IMG/VR virus record: IMGVR_UViG_3300045988_005395
Location: 1 to 5,959 of that record
DNA length: 5,959 nt
DNA from: a virus
Reading direction: 5' to 3' (one strand)
Notes under the pieces: generated by a model
Database searches by the model: none
Told to the model about the DNA's origin: nothing
The model's input: the letters and a program-made list of their open reading frames with translations, nothing else
Made by a program: the position numbers and the translations under genes
Shown: in pieces, positions 430 through 5,959 of the stretch
Numbering within the stretch: the first letter of the stretch is position 1
Layout of the letters: every line of letters starts with the position of its first letter

Positions 430-532
430 AGTCCGCAAGTCCAAAGACGCAAAAATCTACAACAAGACCGCACGAAAAACCAAAGCAATCAACCTTGGCA
501 GCGGCGCAATGCGAGGAGGCATTAGATTATGA
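413..532 (+). CDS. 39-aa highly basic peptide, a putative DNA-binding/packaging protein (phiX174 J / gokushovirus ORF8-VP8 analogue). Not in the supplied ORF track
   Basis: Hand translation gives MGKRNKVRKSKDAKIYNKTARKTKAINLGSGAMRGGIRL, with 13 K/R and 1 acidic residue in 39. The C-terminal MRGGIRL matches, from memory, the conserved end of small basic microvirus proteins. Its TGA (530..532) overlaps the next ATG (529..531) as ATGA. Confidence 0.7.
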   Translation: MGKRNKVRKSKDAKIYNKTARKTKAINLGSGAMRGGIRL

Positions 533-768
533 TTAACGTTTATGGTATCTACGACCAGTGTGCTATGTGCTACATCACCACCATTAACGAGCGCGAGGAT
601 AAAGTCGCCGAGCGTAATTTTAAAATTGCACTCACAGACGAAAACAACATCATGAGCAAGACGCCGAGCGACTACAGACTGGTCAAACTCGCAAAGTTTG
701 ACGAACGCGACGGCACGTTTGAAAATGAAAAGGAGAACATTTACGATGGCATTTCGCTCAGTAAGTAA
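529..768 (+). CDS. Hypothetical 79-aa protein, possibly a conserved small non-structural microvirus protein
   Basis: ATG at 529 is preceded by GAGGAGG (513..519) at 9-nt spacing and has an ATGA overlap with the upstream ORF. The pattern VYGIYD...DYRLVKLAKFDERDG resembles small ORFs I recall in gokushovirus-like genomes. This is unverified. Confidence 0.65.
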   Translation: MINVYGIYDQCAMCYITTINEREDKVAERNFKIALTDENNIMSKTPSDYRLVKLAKFDERDGTFENEKENIYDGISLSK

Positions 769-1255
769 CTTCCGAGAGACGACGACGGCATGGCCAACTG
801 AGGCCGGAGAAAGCGTAAGACGAACATACCTTTGGGAGCGCAACGAAAAGGGCGAAAAGGTGCTGAAGCTCGACCAAACCATTGACCAGCAAGCTGAAAT
901 CGATAGCTATCTCGAAGAAACCAAAATCGAAAACATCATCCGCCGAGCAAGCATCGACCCGAGCATTGCAGAGCGAATCGCACCGGAATTGGGCGGCGAC
1001 ATCCAAGACTTTACCGAGGTACCACACACGCTAGCAGAACTCCAAAACATCATGATTCGAGCCGAGCAGATTTGGGATGAAGTGCCAAAAGAAATCAAGC
1101 TCAAATTTGACAACGACGTGGACAAGTTTATCGCAAGCTTCGGAAGCATCGAATGGGCGGAAAATTTAGGCATTATGACGAAGAACACCCCTGAAACAGA
1201 ACCGGATGAAAAGGTAGAGACTAGCAAAATGACGAAAACCGAGGTGAAAGAATGA
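746..1255 (+). CDS. VP3: Internal scaffolding protein VP3 (Chlamydia-phage Chp2 scaffold family). The start is uncertain (TTG 698, ATG 725 or ATG 746)
   Basis: The ORF is open from 698, where the track start is TTG. ATG 746 has AAGGAG (730..735) upstream. The block ETKIENIIRRA...DFTEVPHTLAELQNIMIRAEQIWDEVPKEIKLKFDNDVDKFI matches the remembered VP3 signature (D-x-T-x-x-P...LP-x-x-[IV]-[RK]-x-x-F-x-N-[DP]...F). The stop overlaps the VP1 start (ATGA at 1252..1255). Confidence 0.8.
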   Translation: MAFRSVSNFRETTTAWPTEAGESVRRTYLWERNEKGEKVLKLDQTIDQQAEIDSYLEETKIENIIRRASIDPSIAERIAPELGGDIQDFTEVPHTLAELQNIMIRAEQIWDEVPKEIKLKFDNDVDKFIASFGSIEWAENLGIMTKNTPETEPDEKVETSKMTKTEVKE

Positions 1256-2952
1256 ACAGAAACAAAGATGCGGGATTTAACCAAGTTCCGCGACTGGACA
1301 TCACGCGAAGCCGCTTTAAAAGGCGTCAAGACGTCAAATTGACAATGAACGCAGGAGAACTTATTCCATTTTACGTAGATGAGGTGCTACCGGGCGACAC
1401 CTTCAGCGTTGACCAGGCAGCCATTATCCGTATGACAACGCCCATCTTTCCCGTGATGGATAACTGTTACATGGACATCTATTACTTTTTCACACCGAAC
1501 CGGATTCTGTGGAAAAACTGGAAGCGGTTTATGGGCGAAAACGACACCGGGCCGTGGGTACAAAAACAAGAATACACAATCCCGCAAATCAAAATCCAAG
1601 CAAGCACCAGCAGCAATGCATTACCGCTGGAAGGAAGCCTCATGGATTACATGGGAATCCCGACAAAAGTATGCAAGGATAAAAATACAGAATTTGAAGT
1701 AAACGCACTGCCATTCCGGGCTTACGCAATGATATGGCAGGAGTGGTTCAGAGACCAAAATGTAGATAACCCAGCTATAAACAGCATCGAAGACGCAACA
1801 GTAACCTACGCAGACGGCAACAATAAAAAAGACCTTGAAAAATGCCTGCAGGAAGCATATCGAGGCGGCAGACCATTACCGGTAAACAAGTTTCATGACT
1901 ACTTTACAAGCGCACTGCCAAGTCCGCAGAAAGCAGGAGAACCAGTAACCATTCCGCTAACCGGAAGTGCACCGCTAGGAATGTACAATCCGTCAACAGG
2001 AAAAGTAACAATCAACAGCGCCGAAATGAAAGCTATAGCAAAAGATGCAGGACTGTTAAGCACAGGCAGCACCTTTAACGCCGCAGATTGGGACGTCGGA
2101 GACGGGCCAGTTGCAAACAAAGGACTGGCAGTAGGAAAAAATACACTGTCCGTATACAGTGGAGTGACCATAGGAGCAGACCTCTCAATGGTCAACGCAA
2201 CCACTATCAACCAGCTGCGGCAGGCATTCCAAGTTCAAAAGTACTATGAGCAACTCGCACGCGGCGGCAGCAGATACCGAGAGATGATTTATTCGCTGTT
2301 CCACACCAAAATCAGCGATAAAACGGTGCAAATCCCGGAGTATCTGGGCGGTACGCGAATCACCATCAACATGAGTCAAGTCATCCAGACCAGCGGCACG
2401 ACAGCAGAAAGTCCGCAGGGCAACACAGGAGCAGTAAGTGTTACACCGTACAACGGTAGCATGTTTACAAAAAGCTTCGAAGAACACGGCTTTGTTATCG
2501 GCGTATGTTGCATCCGACATGACCATACTTACCAGCAAGGTCTCGAACGAATGTGGAGTCGTAAAAACAACCTGGACTTTTACTACCCTGTATTTGCAAA
2601 TCTGGGCGAACAGGCCATCCTGAAAAAAGAACTGTATCTTACTGGTACGAGCACCGATGAACAGGCATTTGGATACCAAGAAGCATGGGCGGAATACCGG
2701 ATGAAGCCGAACAGAATCAGCGGCAAATTCCGCAGCAACGCAACGGGAACACTGGACAGTTGGCACTACGGTGACAACTACAAGGAAACCCCAAGCTTAA
2801 GTCAAGCATGGATGAAAGAGGGAGACTCTGAAATCCAGAGAACTCTCGCAGTGGACAATGAACCGCAATTTATCATGGACACAATCATTGACAACACCAG
2901 CGTAAGACCAATGCCCATGTACAGCATTCCGGGTCTCGTCGACCATCACTAA
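1252..2952 (+). CDS. VP1: Major capsid protein VP1 (Microviridae F-protein family), 566 aa
   Basis: The N-terminal block FNQVPRLDITRSRFKRRQDVKLTMNAGELIPFYVDEVLPGDTF...TPIFPVMDN...FFTPNRILWKNWKRFMGE is present. The internal blocks HDYFTSALPSPQK and TINQLRQAFQVQKYYEQLARGGSRY are classic gokushovirus VP1 motifs. GAGGTGA at 1237..1243 serves as the RBS. Confidence 0.95.
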   Translation: MNRNKDAGFNQVPRLDITRSRFKRRQDVKLTMNAGELIPFYVDEVLPGDTFSVDQAAIIRMTTPIFPVMDNCYMDIYYFFTPNRILWKNWKRFMGENDTGPWVQKQEYTIPQIKIQASTSSNALPLEGSLMDYMGIPTKVCKDKNTEFEVNALPFRAYAMIWQEWFRDQNVDNPAINSIEDATVTYADGNNKKDLEKCLQEAYRGGRPLPVNKFHDYFTSALPSPQKAGEPVTIPLTGSAPLGMYNPSTGKVTINSAEMKAIAKDAGLLSTGSTFNAADWDVGDGPVANKGLAVGKNTLSVYSGVTIGADLSMVNATTINQLRQAFQVQKYYEQLARGGSRYREMIYSLFHTKISDKTVQIPEYLGGTRITINMSQVIQTSGTTAESPQGNTGAVSVTPYNGSMFTKSFEEHGFVIGVCCIRHDHTYQQGLERMWSRKNNLDFYYPVFANLGEQAILKKELYLTGTSTDEQAFGYQEAWAEYRMKPNRISGKFRSNATGTLDSWHYGDNYKETPSLSQAWMKEGDSEIQRTLAVDNEPQFIMDTIIDNTSVRPMPMYSIPGLVDHH

Positions 2953-2997: not shown

Positions 2998-3876
2998 ATG
3001 GGAGCATTAGCAACATTCGGACTCGGGCTACTCAAATCAGCATTACCAAGCCTAGTGGGAGCAGCAGCAAATAAACTGTTTGGAACAAGCTCAGGTTACG
3101 GACAGCAATCACAAGCAAACAGTCAGAGCAGCGGTTCAAGCTGGTCACAAGGCTCAAGCGACAGTGCAAGTTTCAGCAACGGCGGAACAAACGACGAGAT
3201 AAACAAAAACATTGCAGCACTAGCAAACCAGCTAAGCCAAGCAAGCATGGCCGGACAACAAAAATACAATCGCAACTCAATGCTAATGCAGATGGGGTAC
3301 AACACCTTATCGGCAATCCAGCAGGGTGTATACAATCACATCGAGCAGCAAACAGCCATGAGCTATAACAGCGCCGAAGCCGCAAAAAACAGAGCTTGGC
3401 AAGAGCAAATGAGTAACACAGCATACCAAAGAGCCGTCGAAGATATGCGAAAAGCAGGTATCAATCCTATCTTAGCATACACACAAGGCGGCGCAAGCAC
3501 TCCAAGCGGAGCACAAGGAACAATAGGCAGCGCAAGTATGGGCATGGCATCCAGCAGCGCACTGGGAGCAACAGCATTACCGGGCATCAAACAGGATGGC
3601 AGCTGGAGCAGTCATAGCGAAGCATGGAGTCACGCAGAAAACGCAGCACAGAGCATCCAGCAAGCTATCATGTCGAGCAGCTCAAACCCGGTAAGACTCA
3701 AAGGGGACATGGAGGACATAGCTGAAACAGCAGTGGAAAACGCGGCCAAACTGAAAGAAAAGTTCGCGGCCTTACCCGTAGCAGACAAAGCAAAGAAAGA
3801 GCTTGCGGGACAGTTCGAACAGGCAAGAAGGTACTTGCCCACAGGGTACATGAGTGTAAATCCAAGAGGTAAATAA
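2998..3876 (+). CDS. VP2: Minor capsid / DNA pilot protein VP2, 292 aa
   Basis: The N-terminus is hydrophobic and Gly/Ala-rich ([29 protein letters not shown]), followed by a Ser/Gln-rich linker. The block [29 protein letters not shown] matches the motif I recall as the hallmark of microvirus VP2 proteins. Confidence 0.88.
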
Positions 3877-4896
3877 ATGGGATGTAATAAACCGTTAATC
3901 CGGTTTTATGTACCTCATGACAGAGAGGCGAGTGGGCGAGTGTACTCACTCGCCTCTTTTAACGAGATACACAAGACCAAAATGACTTACGAAAATTTAA
4001 TGTACAGAAAAGATGTAATGTTGATACCATGCGGACAGTGTACCGGGTGCAGACTGCGCAAACGGAAAGATTGGAGCACACGAATGGAGCTAGAAGCATA
4101 TGGTCACGACAAAGAAAGCATCTGGTTTATAACGCTGACTTATGACGATGACCACGTACCAACACAGGACACGGAGACAGGCGAAATCTATAAAGGCGGC
4201 ATAAACATCTGGAAAGGCGTCTCAGAGCGTCCAAGAACGGCGCAAACGCTGAGCGTAGAAGATACCCAACTATTCATGAAAAGGCTCAGAAAGGCCATCA
4301 AAGAGCCTCTGAGATACTTTTTAGCGGGAGAGTACGGAGACAACACAGCGAGACCACACTATCACATGATACTATATGGATGGCATCCAGACGACTTAAA
4401 ACCAATCCACAAATTGTCAAGACACGGTCATTATACAAGTGATAAGTTGGTCAAAATCTGGGGACAAGGTACTGTGGACATAGCACAGGCAACACCGGAA
4501 ACATATAACTATGTTGCAGGGTATGTAACCAAAAAACTGTACGGCAACGACAAAAAGCGTTACCAAAAAATGGGTTTAGTACCACCATTTTGTACCATGA
4601 GCCGTAAGCCGGGACTCGGAGACAAGTGGTTTGAGGACAACCAAACACGACTCTGGCAGCAAGGGTACATACAGCTTACCAACGGCAAGAGAGCAGCCAT
4701 ACCAGAATACTATTGGAGAAAACTGGAAGCTGAAAACCCTGAAAAAGCATGGAGAATCAAGAAGTATCGGCAAGAGAAAGCTATCGCGTCCTTAATCGAA
4801 AGAAACGCGGAAACTGATAAACCATACGCAGAACAGTTAAAAGACAAAGAAACATCCATGTCGAAGAAGATGAGCAAAGCCAAAGGTGTATTTTGA
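3877..4896 (+). CDS. VP4: Replication initiation protein VP4 (HUH rolling-circle endonuclease, phiX174 gpA-like), 339 aa
   Basis: The N-terminus shows MGCNKPL and CGQCTGCRLRKRKDW. Motif 1 is FITLTYDD (from 4126). The HUH motif is PHYHMILYG, with H-Y-H at 4357..4365. The catalytic Y-x-x-x-Y-x-x-K-K is YVAGYVTKK (Tyr codons at 4510..4512 and 4522..4524). The ATG directly follows the VP2 TAA, with AGAGG at 3865..3869. Confidence 0.95.
   Translation: MGCNKPLIRFYVPHDREASGRVYSLASFNEIHKTKMTYENLMYRKDVMLIPCGQCTGCRLRKRKDWSTRMELEAYGHDKESIWFITLTYDDDHVPTQDTETGEIYKGGINIWKGVSERPRTAQTLSVEDTQLFMKRLRKAIKEPLRYFLAGEYGDNTARPHYHMILYGWHPDDLKPIHKLSRHGHYTSDKLVKIWGQGTVDIAQATPETYNYVAGYVTKKLYGNDKKRYQKMGLVPPFCTMSRKPGLGDKWFEDNQTRLWQQGYIQLTNGKRAAIPEYYWRKLEAENPEKAWRIKKYRQEKAIASLIERNAETDKPYAEQLKDKETSMSKKMSKAKGVF
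3924..3957 (+). other. Strong stem-loop with two alternative 5' arms inside the 5' end of VP4
   Basis: AGAGGCGAGTG (3924..3934) and the shorter GGCGAGTG (3935..3942) are both perfectly complementary to CACTCGCCTCT (3947..3957). TTTT follows at 3957..3960. Confidence 0.8.
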
Positions 4897-4907
4897 CACT
4901 TTGGTGT

Positions 4908-4956
4908 CACTCAGCCAAGTAACTATCAAGTAAGCTACTTGGCTGAGTGTTTTATT
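4908..4956 (+). terminator. Intrinsic terminator ending the main (structural plus Rep) transcription unit
   Basis: A perfect 14-bp stem pairs CACTCAGCCAAGTA (4908..4921) with TACTTGGCTGAGTG (4936..4949) around a 14-nt loop. TTTTATT follows at 4950..4956. It lies 12 nt after the VP4 stop. Confidence 0.8.
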
Positions 4957-4966
4957 GATTTGTTAA

Positions 4967-5008
4967 ATGCACACGCACGCGCACGTAATCGCGCACGCGC
5001 ACGTGCAT
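4967..5008. repeat. Two alternating purine-pyrimidine GC-rich tracts containing a 12-nt direct repeat
   Basis: ATGCACACGCACGCGCACGT (4967..4986) and CGCGCACGCGCACGTGCAT (4990..5008) alternate Pu/Py without interruption. GCACGCGCACGT occurs at 4975..4986 and 4993..5004. Confidence 0.9.
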
Positions 5009-5053
5009 TATATTATTATTATTATTATTAACTTGTTGTAGTAGTAGTAGTAG
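5007..5053. repeat. 47-nt tract in one continuous 3-nt register: pure A/T tract with (ATT)6, then AAC TTG TTG, then (TAG)5
   Basis: 5007..5031 contains no G or C. ATT x6 lies at 5012..5029 and TAG x5 at 5039..5053, in the same register. Confidence 0.95.
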
Positions 5054-5131
5054 GGAGTGTTGAAATGTTGAAAACTATGAATTTTTATCCTTGGAACGAT
5101 ATTTTTTGGTTAATTTTAATGTTGATACTTT

Positions 5132-5140
5132 TGTGGATAA
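5132..5140 (+). promoter_or_regulatory. Perfect consensus DnaA box (TGTGGATAA, the reverse complement of TTATCCACA)
   Basis: A 9/9 match to the E. coli / B. subtilis high-affinity DnaA box, read directly from the sequence. Confidence 0.8.
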
Positions 5141-5195
5141 CTTGTTGAATTGTTGAAAGTGTAGCAATATGCACAAAAACCTTTGTGCAACATTT

Positions 5196-5204
5196 TGTGG
5201 AAAA
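5196..5204 (+). promoter_or_regulatory. DnaA box variant (TGTGGAAAA, the reverse complement of TTTTCCACA)
   Basis: It matches 8/9 to the strict consensus and fits the relaxed consensus TTWTNCACA. It sits in a 21-nt unit (5193..5213) that is 19/21 identical to 5129..5149. Confidence 0.7.
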
Positions 5205-5351
5205 CCTGTTGAAAGTGTTGAAAGTGTTGAAAAAGAGAATAAAGGCCGTCCGACGAGCAAAACCGAAAAGTTACGTCATGCTCTTCGTACGGCGCACCGC
5301 GCCTAGCGCATGACCTTCAAGACAAAATTCTTCTAATTTTTTCAAAAAACC

Positions 5352-5380
5352 TTGACTTTTTACAAAAAAAATGATAGAAT
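5352..5380 (+). promoter_or_regulatory. Sigma-70/SigA-type promoter with extended -10, driving the two small downstream ORFs
   Basis: TTGACT (5352..5357), a 17-nt spacer and TAGAAT (5375..5380), with TG at 5372..5373. An A/T-rich UP-like tract lies at 5324..5350. A perfect TATAAT also occurs at 5380..5385. Confidence 0.75.
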
Positions 5381-5613: not shown

Positions 5614-5811
5614 ATGAAAAAGCCTAAACTGAACGAAAGAACCATCACAAGACTCGAAACCTACGGACAAGTATGGTGCAGCAGATATTACTACGAACTG
5701 AAAGACTACGTAGACACAGAAGGAAATTGTTACACGATACTTGAACGGACAAATCTTAGAACCGGTGACGTAGACGAATTCAATTGGGAAGGATACACTA
5801 AAGAGGCTTGA
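5614..5811 (+). CDS. Hypothetical 65-aa protein, function unknown
   Basis: ATG 5614 is preceded by AAGGAAGG (5598..5605) at 8-nt spacing. The stop codon TGA (5809..5811) lies in the terminator hairpin. I recognise no family. Confidence 0.6.
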   Translation: MKKPKLNERTITRLETYGQVWCSRYYYELKDYVDTEGNCYTILERTNLRTGDVDEFNWEGYTKEA

Positions 5812-5831
5812 CAAGCCTCTTTTTTTTTTTT
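5800..5831 (+). terminator. Intrinsic terminator of the small-ORF cassette
   Basis: GAGGCTT (5803..5809) pairs with AAGCCTC (5813..5819) around the loop GAC. The stem is extendable by A:T pairs to 10 bp (5800..5809 with 5813..5822). A 12-nt T-run (5820..5831) starts immediately after the core stem, and its first three T form those A:T pairs. Confidence 0.85.
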
Positions 5832-5836
5832 ATACT
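5808..5836 (+). promoter_or_regulatory. Main promoter overlapping the terminator; the -10 element is duplicated at 13..18 by the terminal redundancy
   Basis: Perfect -35 TTGACA (5808..5813), a 17-nt spacer made of the terminator 3' arm and T-tract, and -10 TATACT (5831..5836). The AGGAGG leader follows at 80..85 (5898..5903). Confidence 0.7.
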
Positions 5837-5959
5837 GAAAACAGTTAAACAGCACAAAAGTGCTTTTTTACAAAACCATTTATACAAAATAATTTTTAGG
5901 AGGTATGTGCTCTGACTCTCAAGGAAATTGACGCGCTGTTTAACAACATCCGCAAAATC
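5819..5959. repeat. Terminal redundancy, copy B (identical to 1..141)
   Basis: See copy A. Identical over all 141 nt by direct reading. Confidence 0.96.

Follow-up and report, generated by a model that had tools for sequence, protein, structure and literature searches.

The repeat array and its setting

The analysis focused on a 5959-nt stretch of viral DNA (hereafter the window; IMG/VR record IMGVR_UViG_3300045988_005395) and on an array of short direct repeats in the gap that follows its VP4 gene. The window represents a circular genome of about 5814 nt, bases 1–145 being repeated at its end (5815–5959), a terminal redundancy showing the record to be complete and circularly permuted. The plus strand encodes all of its genes (Table 1), and the nearest relatives are gut Gokushovirinae from the faeces of human, monkey and pig. 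The array sits in the gap 4897–5370, between the VP4 terminator and the next promoter, and forms the box part of a module of about 215 nt (approximately 5007–5233), and the functional unit begins upstream of the start first reported. This module very probably consists of DnaA boxes of the host type, arranged in imitation of a bacterial chromosomal origin.

Ten sites of the form TGTKGAWW are found on the same strand at 5058–5233 (176 nt), where about one would be expected by chance; they start at 5058, 5066, 5120, 5132, 5143, 5151, 5196, 5207, 5216 and 5225, and are here numbered S1 to S10. The exact 8-mer TGTTGAAA is present in six copies, all on the plus strand and all within 5058–5232 (0.52 expected; none of 200 shuffles reached six), and the motif TGTKGAWA has 11 matches in the window against 1.0 expected (none of 200 shuffles reached 11). 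Nine of these 11 are on the plus strand at 5058–5232, and TGTTGAAT (5143–5150) brings the sites to ten. The first-pass annotation, made from the letters and a list of open reading frames, had described a ten-site array in a single orientation, and this is real and non-random when set against the 200 shuffles. Each of the sequences it quoted was recovered where it had been placed, as were its two 21-nt units (5129–5149 and 5193–5213; 19/21 identical, 90%), its triple repeat of 9-nt period (5207, 5216, 5225) and its 8-bp hairpin. The sites are spaced at 12, 11 and 8 nt from S3 to S6, and at 11, 9 and 9 nt from S7 to S10.

Two of the sites, TGTGGATAA (5132–5140) and TGTGGAAAA (5196–5204), fit the relaxed DnaA-box consensus TTWTNCACA on the minus strand. 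The window has four matches to this consensus against 0.57 expected, and one of 200 shuffles reached four, so the comparison with shuffled controls proposed earlier does return an enrichment, modest as it is by box count alone. With two of ten sites fitting the canonical box (TTATCCACA or TTWTNCACA), the array as a whole is not one of canonical DnaA boxes.

Table 1. Genes and intergenic features of the window
Feature	Position	Strand	Remarks
VP5	529–768	+	
VP3 (scaffold)	698–1255	+	
VP1 (capsid)	1252–2952	+	
VP2	2998–3876	+	
VP4 (HUH initiator, intact)	3877–4896	+	stop codon 4894–4896
Terminator hairpin with T-tract, upstream gap edge	4908–4949	+	17-nt arms, 94% complementary
GC-rich (CGCGCACG)n palindrome, outside the DnaA module	4966–5009		
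A/T-only run, 25 nt, candidate DNA-unwinding element	5007–5031		GC 0.20
AACTTGTTG, phage-specific, directly 5' of the trios	5030–5038	+	nearly invariant
Five TAG repeats	5039–5053	+	0.01 expected by chance
GGAG, short GC cluster between trios and first box	5054–5057	+	
S1, abutting host-type box beside the trios	5058–5065	+	TGTTGAAA
S2, abutting host-type box beside the trios	5066–5074	+	TGTTGAAAA
S3	5120–5127	+	TGTTGATA
S4	5132–5140	+	TGTGGATAA
S5	5143–5150	+	TGTTGAAT
S6	5151–5158	+	TGTTGAAA
Perfect 8-bp hairpin between the two box clusters	5170–5177 / 5182–5189	+	
S7	5196–5204	+	TGTGGAAAA
S8	5207–5214	+	
S9	5216–5223	+	
S10	5225–5233	+	
Promoter-like TTGACT-17-TAGAAT with TG extension, downstream gap edge	5352–5380	+	

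A basal unwinding layout at the upstream end of the module

The segment 5007–5074 and the array belong to one unit, as had been proposed, and the most informative part of this unit is the run of five TAG repeats, which the earlier description mentioned only in passing. The repeats match the DnaA-trio, a single-strand binding motif with the consensus 3'-GAT-5' (= 5'-TAG-3'). The A/T-only run is on the far side of the trios from the boxes, and host origins are AT-rich at the same relative position; the host counterparts of GGAG read GGGGC, GGGGG or GGTA.

The basal unwinding system, which was defined for B. subtilis and occurs in most bacteria, comprises a pair of boxes, a spacer of up to 16 bp containing a short GC cluster, and three or more trinucleotides centred on A (NAN), of consensus 3'-GAT-5' (PMC8287927). 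Its trio-adjacent box has at most two mismatches to the box of the species, its second tandem box at most four, and the published spacers peak at 10–13 bp (PMC8287927). The trio of C. difficile, 5'-CACCTACTACTATTACTACTATGA, reads TAGTAGTAATAGTAGTAGGTG on the opposite strand (PMC7561715), and the strand complementary to the trios is the recognition element of DnaD. In the window, S2 is the commonest host box and S1 matches the first eight bases of that box (measured against the E. coli box consensus, S2 has two mismatches and S1 three), the five TAGs lie on the same strand as TGTTGAAA with the polarity seen in host dnaA–dnaN regions and in modules with canonical boxes, and the distance from the better box to the first trio is 12 nt, made up of GGAG and the 8-nt S1. 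Read at the level of sequence, the trios, GGAG and two abutting boxes have the layout of the basal unwinding system of Firmicute origins, and the A/T-only run that completes 5007–5074 is a candidate for its AT-rich unwinding region.

The element AACTTGTTG is absent from host origins, and its near-invariance holds when genomes are retrieved independently of the motif. Six of its bases, AACTTG, recur in CAACTTG|ATA, the core at which phiX174 gpA cleaves. The parallel prompted the idea that AACTTG is a nick site here too, but this was rejected since the motif flips together with the module, and the likeness is retained as an unexplained resemblance only. A second copy of AACTTGTTG occurs at 5140–5148, within the box cluster.

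Conservation among gokushoviruses

The gap is conserved at 70–94% identity in 47 GenBank phage records, some of which have coding regions only about 67% identical. Fourteen GenBank records were fetched, more than 140 IMG/VR gokushovirus genomes were retrieved by two independent DNA anchors, and 110 non-redundant modules were aligned. The comparison of the intergenic region that the first-pass annotation had called for thus finds the module conserved in more than 140 gokushovirus genomes of 5–6 kb. The consensus of the 110 modules begins with an AT-rich segment, AACTTGTTG, TAG-NNG-TAG-TAG-TAG, 4–5 GC-rich nucleotides and TGTGGAAAA-GTTGAAAA, and continues with about 45 variable nucleotides, four sites, about 30 nt and a further four sites. 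With the anchor that did not contain the trios, nearly all new microvirus loci still have them, the two box-proximal TAGs being the best kept.

Genomes average about 9.9 sites; the plus strand holds 1086 in all and the minus strand 49, and the logo of the 1086 sites reads T-G-T-(T.84/G.15/C 0)-G-A-A-A-N. Strict DnaA boxes make up 2% of these sites and fits to the relaxed consensus 11%. At the S4 position TGTTGAAAA is found in 66 of the 110 relatives and TGTGGATAA in 21, and at the S7 position TGTTGAAAA is found in 47 and TGTGGAAAA in 43; the perfect box of the window is therefore a subclade variant of the repeat. The two boxes initially reported do fit the DnaA consensus, but the picture of a conserved strong box set among weak ones did not survive the comparison. 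Spo0A boxes (TGTCGAA) were considered as an identity for the repeat and can be ruled out, position 4 never being C in the 1086 sites.

Other parts of the region vary. The hairpin at 5170–5189 is found in only some relatives, others having a different short hairpin or none. In 21 of the 110 modules (L020, L029, L018, L021, L040 and others) the last direct box is followed by a terminal box in inverted orientation, some 180–200 nt past the trios; this terminal box is always the canonical-like TTTTCCACA, never TTTTCAACA, and could pair with a neighbouring box. Small open reading frames across the array (5169–5306, 5185–5313 and 5075–5260) were rejected as genes, as their conservation tracks the 8–9-nt repeat instead, and a family search of the two tested (5169–5306 and 5075–5260) gave no matches. 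Matches in ten long viral contigs (L031, L041, L085, L088, L262, L267, L271, L274, L282 and L294) were set aside as chance matches in coding regions of low complexity.

Host chromosomal origins carry the same box and layout

Bacterial genomes, one per species, were scanned with a query of three tandem TGTTGAAA sites. Many matches were plain TGTTGAAA microsatellites in unrelated bacteria, and about 25 loci, belonging to assemblies of Ruminococcus, Oscillospiraceae, Acutalibacteraceae and Clostridia, had 11–19 same-strand sites within 600 nt. Microvirus genes were absent from all 120 bacterial loci. Pfam identified dnaA and dnaN as the genes flanking the array in three of them (L242 from R. flavefaciens, L167 and L140), and by tblastn 20 loci adjoin dnaA and/or dnaN; one (L226) has a box cluster on the rnpA–yidC side too, as expected of a bipartite origin.

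Eleven host dnaA–dnaN regions have 16–41 same-strand boxes each, with the logo T-G-T-(T.78/G.15)-G-A-A-A-(A.63/G.24), near-identical to that of the phages. Ten of the eleven show, at 100–350 nt from the dnaN start, an AT-rich segment, four or five TAG, GGGG(C/G) and TGT(T/G)GAAA(N)TGT(T/G)GAAAA, and most of the regions examined have five TAG repeats, as does the window. Phage and host share one order, spacing and orientation of five TAGs, a GC cluster, two abutting boxes and further boxes on the same strand, preceded by an AT-rich stretch that in the phage is a candidate unwinding region. The core of the window (trios, GC cluster and boxes) is identical at 37 of 39 bases to four host origins (L252, L235, L181 and L140), and in one phage relative (L066) the agreement with the core of the R. 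flavefaciens origin is complete (36 of 36 bases, E = 7e-16). The earlier suggestion that the region is origin-like and DnaA-related is thus borne out by host origins that share both box and layout. Its proposal that the TGTTGAAA sites are low-affinity DnaA sites, or iterons for a phage protein, has to be given up, as the same 8-mer, with the same T/G ratio, fills the dnaA–dnaN origins of the hosts.

All 15 host DnaA proteins have the changes P423A/V/N/Q, T435S and H439Y (E. coli numbering), which affect three of the six base-contacting residues. P423, T435 and H439 are among six base-specific residues otherwise conserved in E. coli and Firmicutes (PMC7561715). The TGTTGAAA(A) box type fills the dnaA–rpmH as well as the dnaA–dnaN regions of these bacteria, and TTTTCAACA is the main box in origins of Ruminococcus, Oscillospiraceae and Acutalibacteraceae. 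Because of this location and these residue changes, TGTTGAAAA (= TTTTCAACA) is best read as the DnaA box of bacteria of the Ruminococcus/Oscillospiraceae type, a reading drawn from sequence comparison, and the likely hosts of the phages would be Firmicutes of the Ruminococcus and Oscillospiraceae types. A literature search for a TTTTCAACA-type DnaA box, or for the Ruminococcus DnaA box, found no description, the box strings returning unrelated primer sequences. The module of the window is a mimic, not a chromosomal origin: it lies in a gokushovirus genome with VP1–VP5 and not in a dnaA–dnaN or rpmH–dnaA region.

Some bacterial contigs fall outside the expected taxa. The dnaA of a contig labelled Alistipes (L175) shares 71% identity with the R. 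flavefaciens gene and is preceded by TGTTGAAA boxes; the contig is probably mis-binned. Two Mesoaciditoga contigs from metagenome-assembled genomes, binned as Thermotogota (L153 at 5230–5290, and L172), have (TAG)4-GTAC-TGTTGAAAGTGTTGAAAAC followed by about ten more boxes, with no dnaA detected within the locus; these reflect either a shared box variant or a binning error.

In other IMG/VR contigs the scaffold is found with canonical boxes instead, as (TAG)n-GGGG-TGTGGATAA-TGTGGATAA, which confirms the polarity of the module and shows that the two box types are interchangeable within one frame. Examples are L309 (1208–1232), L335 (12777–12801) and L299 (711–732), and also L310, L328, L325 and L334, where canonical modules are accompanied by 4–7 more boxes; these long contigs have phage-like genes, with DUF1064, a cell-wall hydrolase and an ExoX-like protein among the neighbours of the modules and no dnaA or dnaN nearby. 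A search for (TAG)3-N2-8-TGTGGATAA among other microviruses returned one contig (L332), with a single box and no array, and the good matches fell in long phage-like contigs. Origin-type unwinding modules may also be present in double-stranded DNA phages.

Orientation, exchange and single-strand structure

Among 119 genomes, the module follows VP4 in the orientation of the genes in 86, is inverted between VP2 and VP4 in 30, and is inverted in place after VP4 in three. In the in-place inversions only the module of about 215 nt is flipped, the GC palindrome and the downstream block remaining unflipped. The 4-fold sites of VP1 are strongly skewed (A 0.41, T 0.13; 109 related genomes), to the same degree in both orientation classes, and the strand asymmetry therefore follows the genes and not the module. 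This A-over-T bias on the coding strand of VP1 is opposite to the T-richness known for phiX174. Five genomes have modules 91–94% identical to that of the window together with a VP4 that is 44% and a VP1 that is about 50% identical. When folded as single strands, 5115–5240 is no more stable than its shuffles (z = -0.87) and 5055–5125 has a minimum free energy of 0. Taken together, the data on orientation, skew, exchange and structure suggest that the module is autonomous and that a host factor recognises it in double-stranded DNA, where it would act, and not on the viral single strand; they speak against iterons specific to VP4, a nick site and a strand-specific single-strand origin.

The terminator hairpin at the upstream edge of the gap is very stable (-16.2 kcal/mol, z = -7.3; none of 200 shuffles folds equally well), and, since the gap is bounded by this terminator and by a promoter, the gap is probably not transcribed. 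The GC palindrome lies directly after the VP4 terminator and is found in most relatives, and it keeps its orientation with VP4 in the genomes where the module is inverted in place (L019, L103 and L280); the palindrome is a candidate for the true origin of either rolling-circle or complementary-strand synthesis. Downstream of the array, a GC-rich block (5240–5315) has moderate single-strand structure (z = -2.3), and at least four distinct sequence types occupy this position among relatives. Elsewhere, a terminator-like hairpin at 5800–5822 overlaps the promoter TTGACA-17-TATACT at 5808–5836. An Rfam scan of the window gave a single sub-threshold chance match only.

Proposed role and alternatives

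It is reasonably likely, by analogy with host origins, that the module serves as a DnaA-dependent element for DNA unwinding and helicase loading. The steps can be outlined from origins of the B. subtilis type. Host DnaA would bind the boxes on the double-stranded replicative form, and ATP-DnaA would spread from the trio-proximal S1 and S2 onto the TAG strand, opening the adjacent AT-rich DNA; DnaD could then bind the complementary CTA strand, which offers TnnT motifs, and the replicative helicase and primase of the host would be loaded. The outcome would be a start, or priming, of replicative-form synthesis that depends on the host initiator and runs alongside the rolling circle driven by VP4. 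It might serve to amplify the replicative form, to prime the lagging strand or to maintain the phage as an episome. It might further be speculated, though it is doubtful, that the replicative form is kept and amplified as an oriC-type minichromosome under DnaA control, by theta-type replication whose timing is set by the host initiator, with the phage persisting in Ruminococcus-like gut bacteria in a non-integrating carrier state; VP4 rolling circle would then be used only for progeny single strands, and phage lineages would exchange the cassette freely, adapting it to the variant box of the host.

Several points weigh against a DnaA-dependent origin function. Rolling-circle replication from a self-encoded HUH initiator is the known mode of the Microviridae, VP4 is intact in the window, and a literature search on gokushoviruses or Microviridae together with DnaA found no precedent for a DnaA-dependent step in the family; a search likewise found no description of DnaA-trios in a phage genome. 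The A/T-only run shrinks to about 10–15 nt in many relatives, and CTTGTTG, which has no counterpart in host origins, parts this run from the trios. Two retrieved genomes (L260 and L293) are without trios. The strand-skew test assumes that skew reflects the strand that is packaged or replicated first, and the binding of the variant DnaA to TTTTCAACA is something we infer from box location and residue changes.

Other explanations make different use of the same features. The boxes might act as a sink or sensor, titrating host DnaA to block chromosome initiation, or coupling phage transcription to DnaA-ATP, with no role as an origin. There is some logic to this, given that box clusters such as datA are known to titrate DnaA in E. 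coli, that hosts too hold box clusters outside their origins, that about ten host-type boxes per genome would be multiplied by the copy number of the replicative form, and that a promoter lies about 120 nt downstream of the array in the window. Titration needs boxes alone, however, and would leave the TAG trios, the GC cluster, the abutting pair and the AT run with its host-like spacing unexplained, and in the 33 genomes where the module is inverted or relocated its relation to the downstream promoter does not hold; we consider a sink or sensor unlikely. It is scarcely credible that the module is a passenger without function in the phage, whether a fragment of host origin picked up recently or a simple tandem repeat: the core is indeed near-identical to host origins, and plain TGTTGAAA tandem repeats do occur in many unrelated bacteria, but the module has been kept in more than 140 genomes of only 5–6 kb, remains 70–94% identical where capsid and VP4 are only 35–55% identical, and has conserved phage-specific features without a host counterpart.

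Two further explanations place the module in the single-stranded replication cycle of the phage itself. In one, it is a rolling-circle origin, comparable to the bind/nic loci of rolling-circle plasmids and to the origins of CRESS viruses, the repeats being iterons for VP4 or for a small phage protein and AACTTG|TTG the nick site. Iterons beside nick sites are common in HUH replicons, the gene for an HUH initiator is adjacent, and the invariant AACTTGTTG shares its six bases with the phiX174 core. A Microviridae nick site would be held on the packaged or coding strand, in a fixed orientation to the genes, and iterons would co-vary with their own initiator; what is found is a module that is inverted in 33 of 119 genomes with the strand skew unchanged, and modules 91–94% identical beside VP4 proteins only 44% identical. 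The same 8-mer and logo are present in bacterial chromosomal origins that have no VP4, and it is the GC palindrome, not the module, that stays fixed with VP4. A rolling-circle origin here is accordingly quite improbable. The other explanation, a complementary-strand origin in which a DnaA box within a hairpin on the viral single strand nucleates a primosome, as at the R6K A site, had been raised in the first-pass annotation and finds a very improbable place among the readings. Pairing is available, since TTTTGTGGATA (5129–5139) can pair with 5168–5178 at 10 of 11 positions and the terminal inverted TTTTCCACA of 21 of the 110 relatives could pair with a box. Conserved hairpins acting as single-strand signals were nevertheless rejected: the stems, sequences and pairing partners differ among relatives, the array of the window is not significantly structured and 5055–5125 is unstructured, and 33 of the 119 genomes have the opposite strand of the module on the coding strand while the skew stays with the genes.

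Significance and comparison with known systems

The DnaA-dependent unwinding module is a known kind of element, and what is new is its setting, a rolling-circle phage with single-stranded DNA, and its host-specific box variant. If the proposed role is true, it would be the first sign that host DnaA and an unwinding element of the chromosomal type are used within the Microviridae, a family that serves as the textbook example of rolling-circle replication started by the phage itself. For a large uncultured clade of gokushoviruses of the human and animal gut, the box allows hosts to be assigned from sequence (Ruminococcus, Oscillospiraceae and relatives), and the origin module behaves as an exchangeable cassette that is independent of orientation. 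The divergent DnaA box TTTTCAACA of the Oscillospirales, with its matching changes in the recognition helix, also affects origin prediction in a major group of gut bacteria.

The closest likeness is to the basal unwinding system of Firmicutes, as in incC of B. subtilis and oriC2 of C. difficile, which has the same order and polarity of AT-rich DNA, TAG trios, a GC cluster of about 4 nt, two abutting boxes oriented as TGTGGATAA, and more boxes beyond; the trio block of C. difficile oriC2 has nearly the same sequence as that of the phage. The phage module differs in lying within a 5.8-kb rolling-circle phage with single-stranded DNA, and not beside dnaA or dnaN, in having about ten boxes where hosts have 16–41, in the phage-specific AACTTGTTG between AT run and trios, and in boxes of the Oscillospirales variant TTTTCAACA and not TTATCCACA.

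Among mobile replicons, the plasmid and phage-plasmid origins of P1 (oriR), pSC101, F, R6K and RK2 also recruit host DnaA through origin boxes, one to a few of which assist the Rep protein of the replicon on its own iterons of 17–22 bp. The phage is without a separate iteron set and carries instead a whole host unwinding module, trios included. The A site of the ABC primosome (R6K, pBR322), which the work of Masai and Arai is said to have shown to be a strand-specific box in a single-strand hairpin, is likewise a case of DnaA used by a replicon with a single-stranded stage, but the phage array is unstructured and occurs in both orientations. The viral-strand origin of phiX174 (gpA site CAACTTG|ATATTAATAAC) comes from the same virus family, with an initiator of the same two-tyrosine motif type as VP4, and shares AACTTG; that origin is located within gene A, contains no repeats, does not involve DnaA and is restricted to the packaged strand, whereas the gokushovirus module flips. 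Finally, clusters that titrate DnaA, such as datA of E. coli and the DnaA-box clusters of B. subtilis, resemble the phage array in having many boxes of the same type outside the chromosomal origin, but such loci are without the trios and the unwinding element that the phage module possesses.

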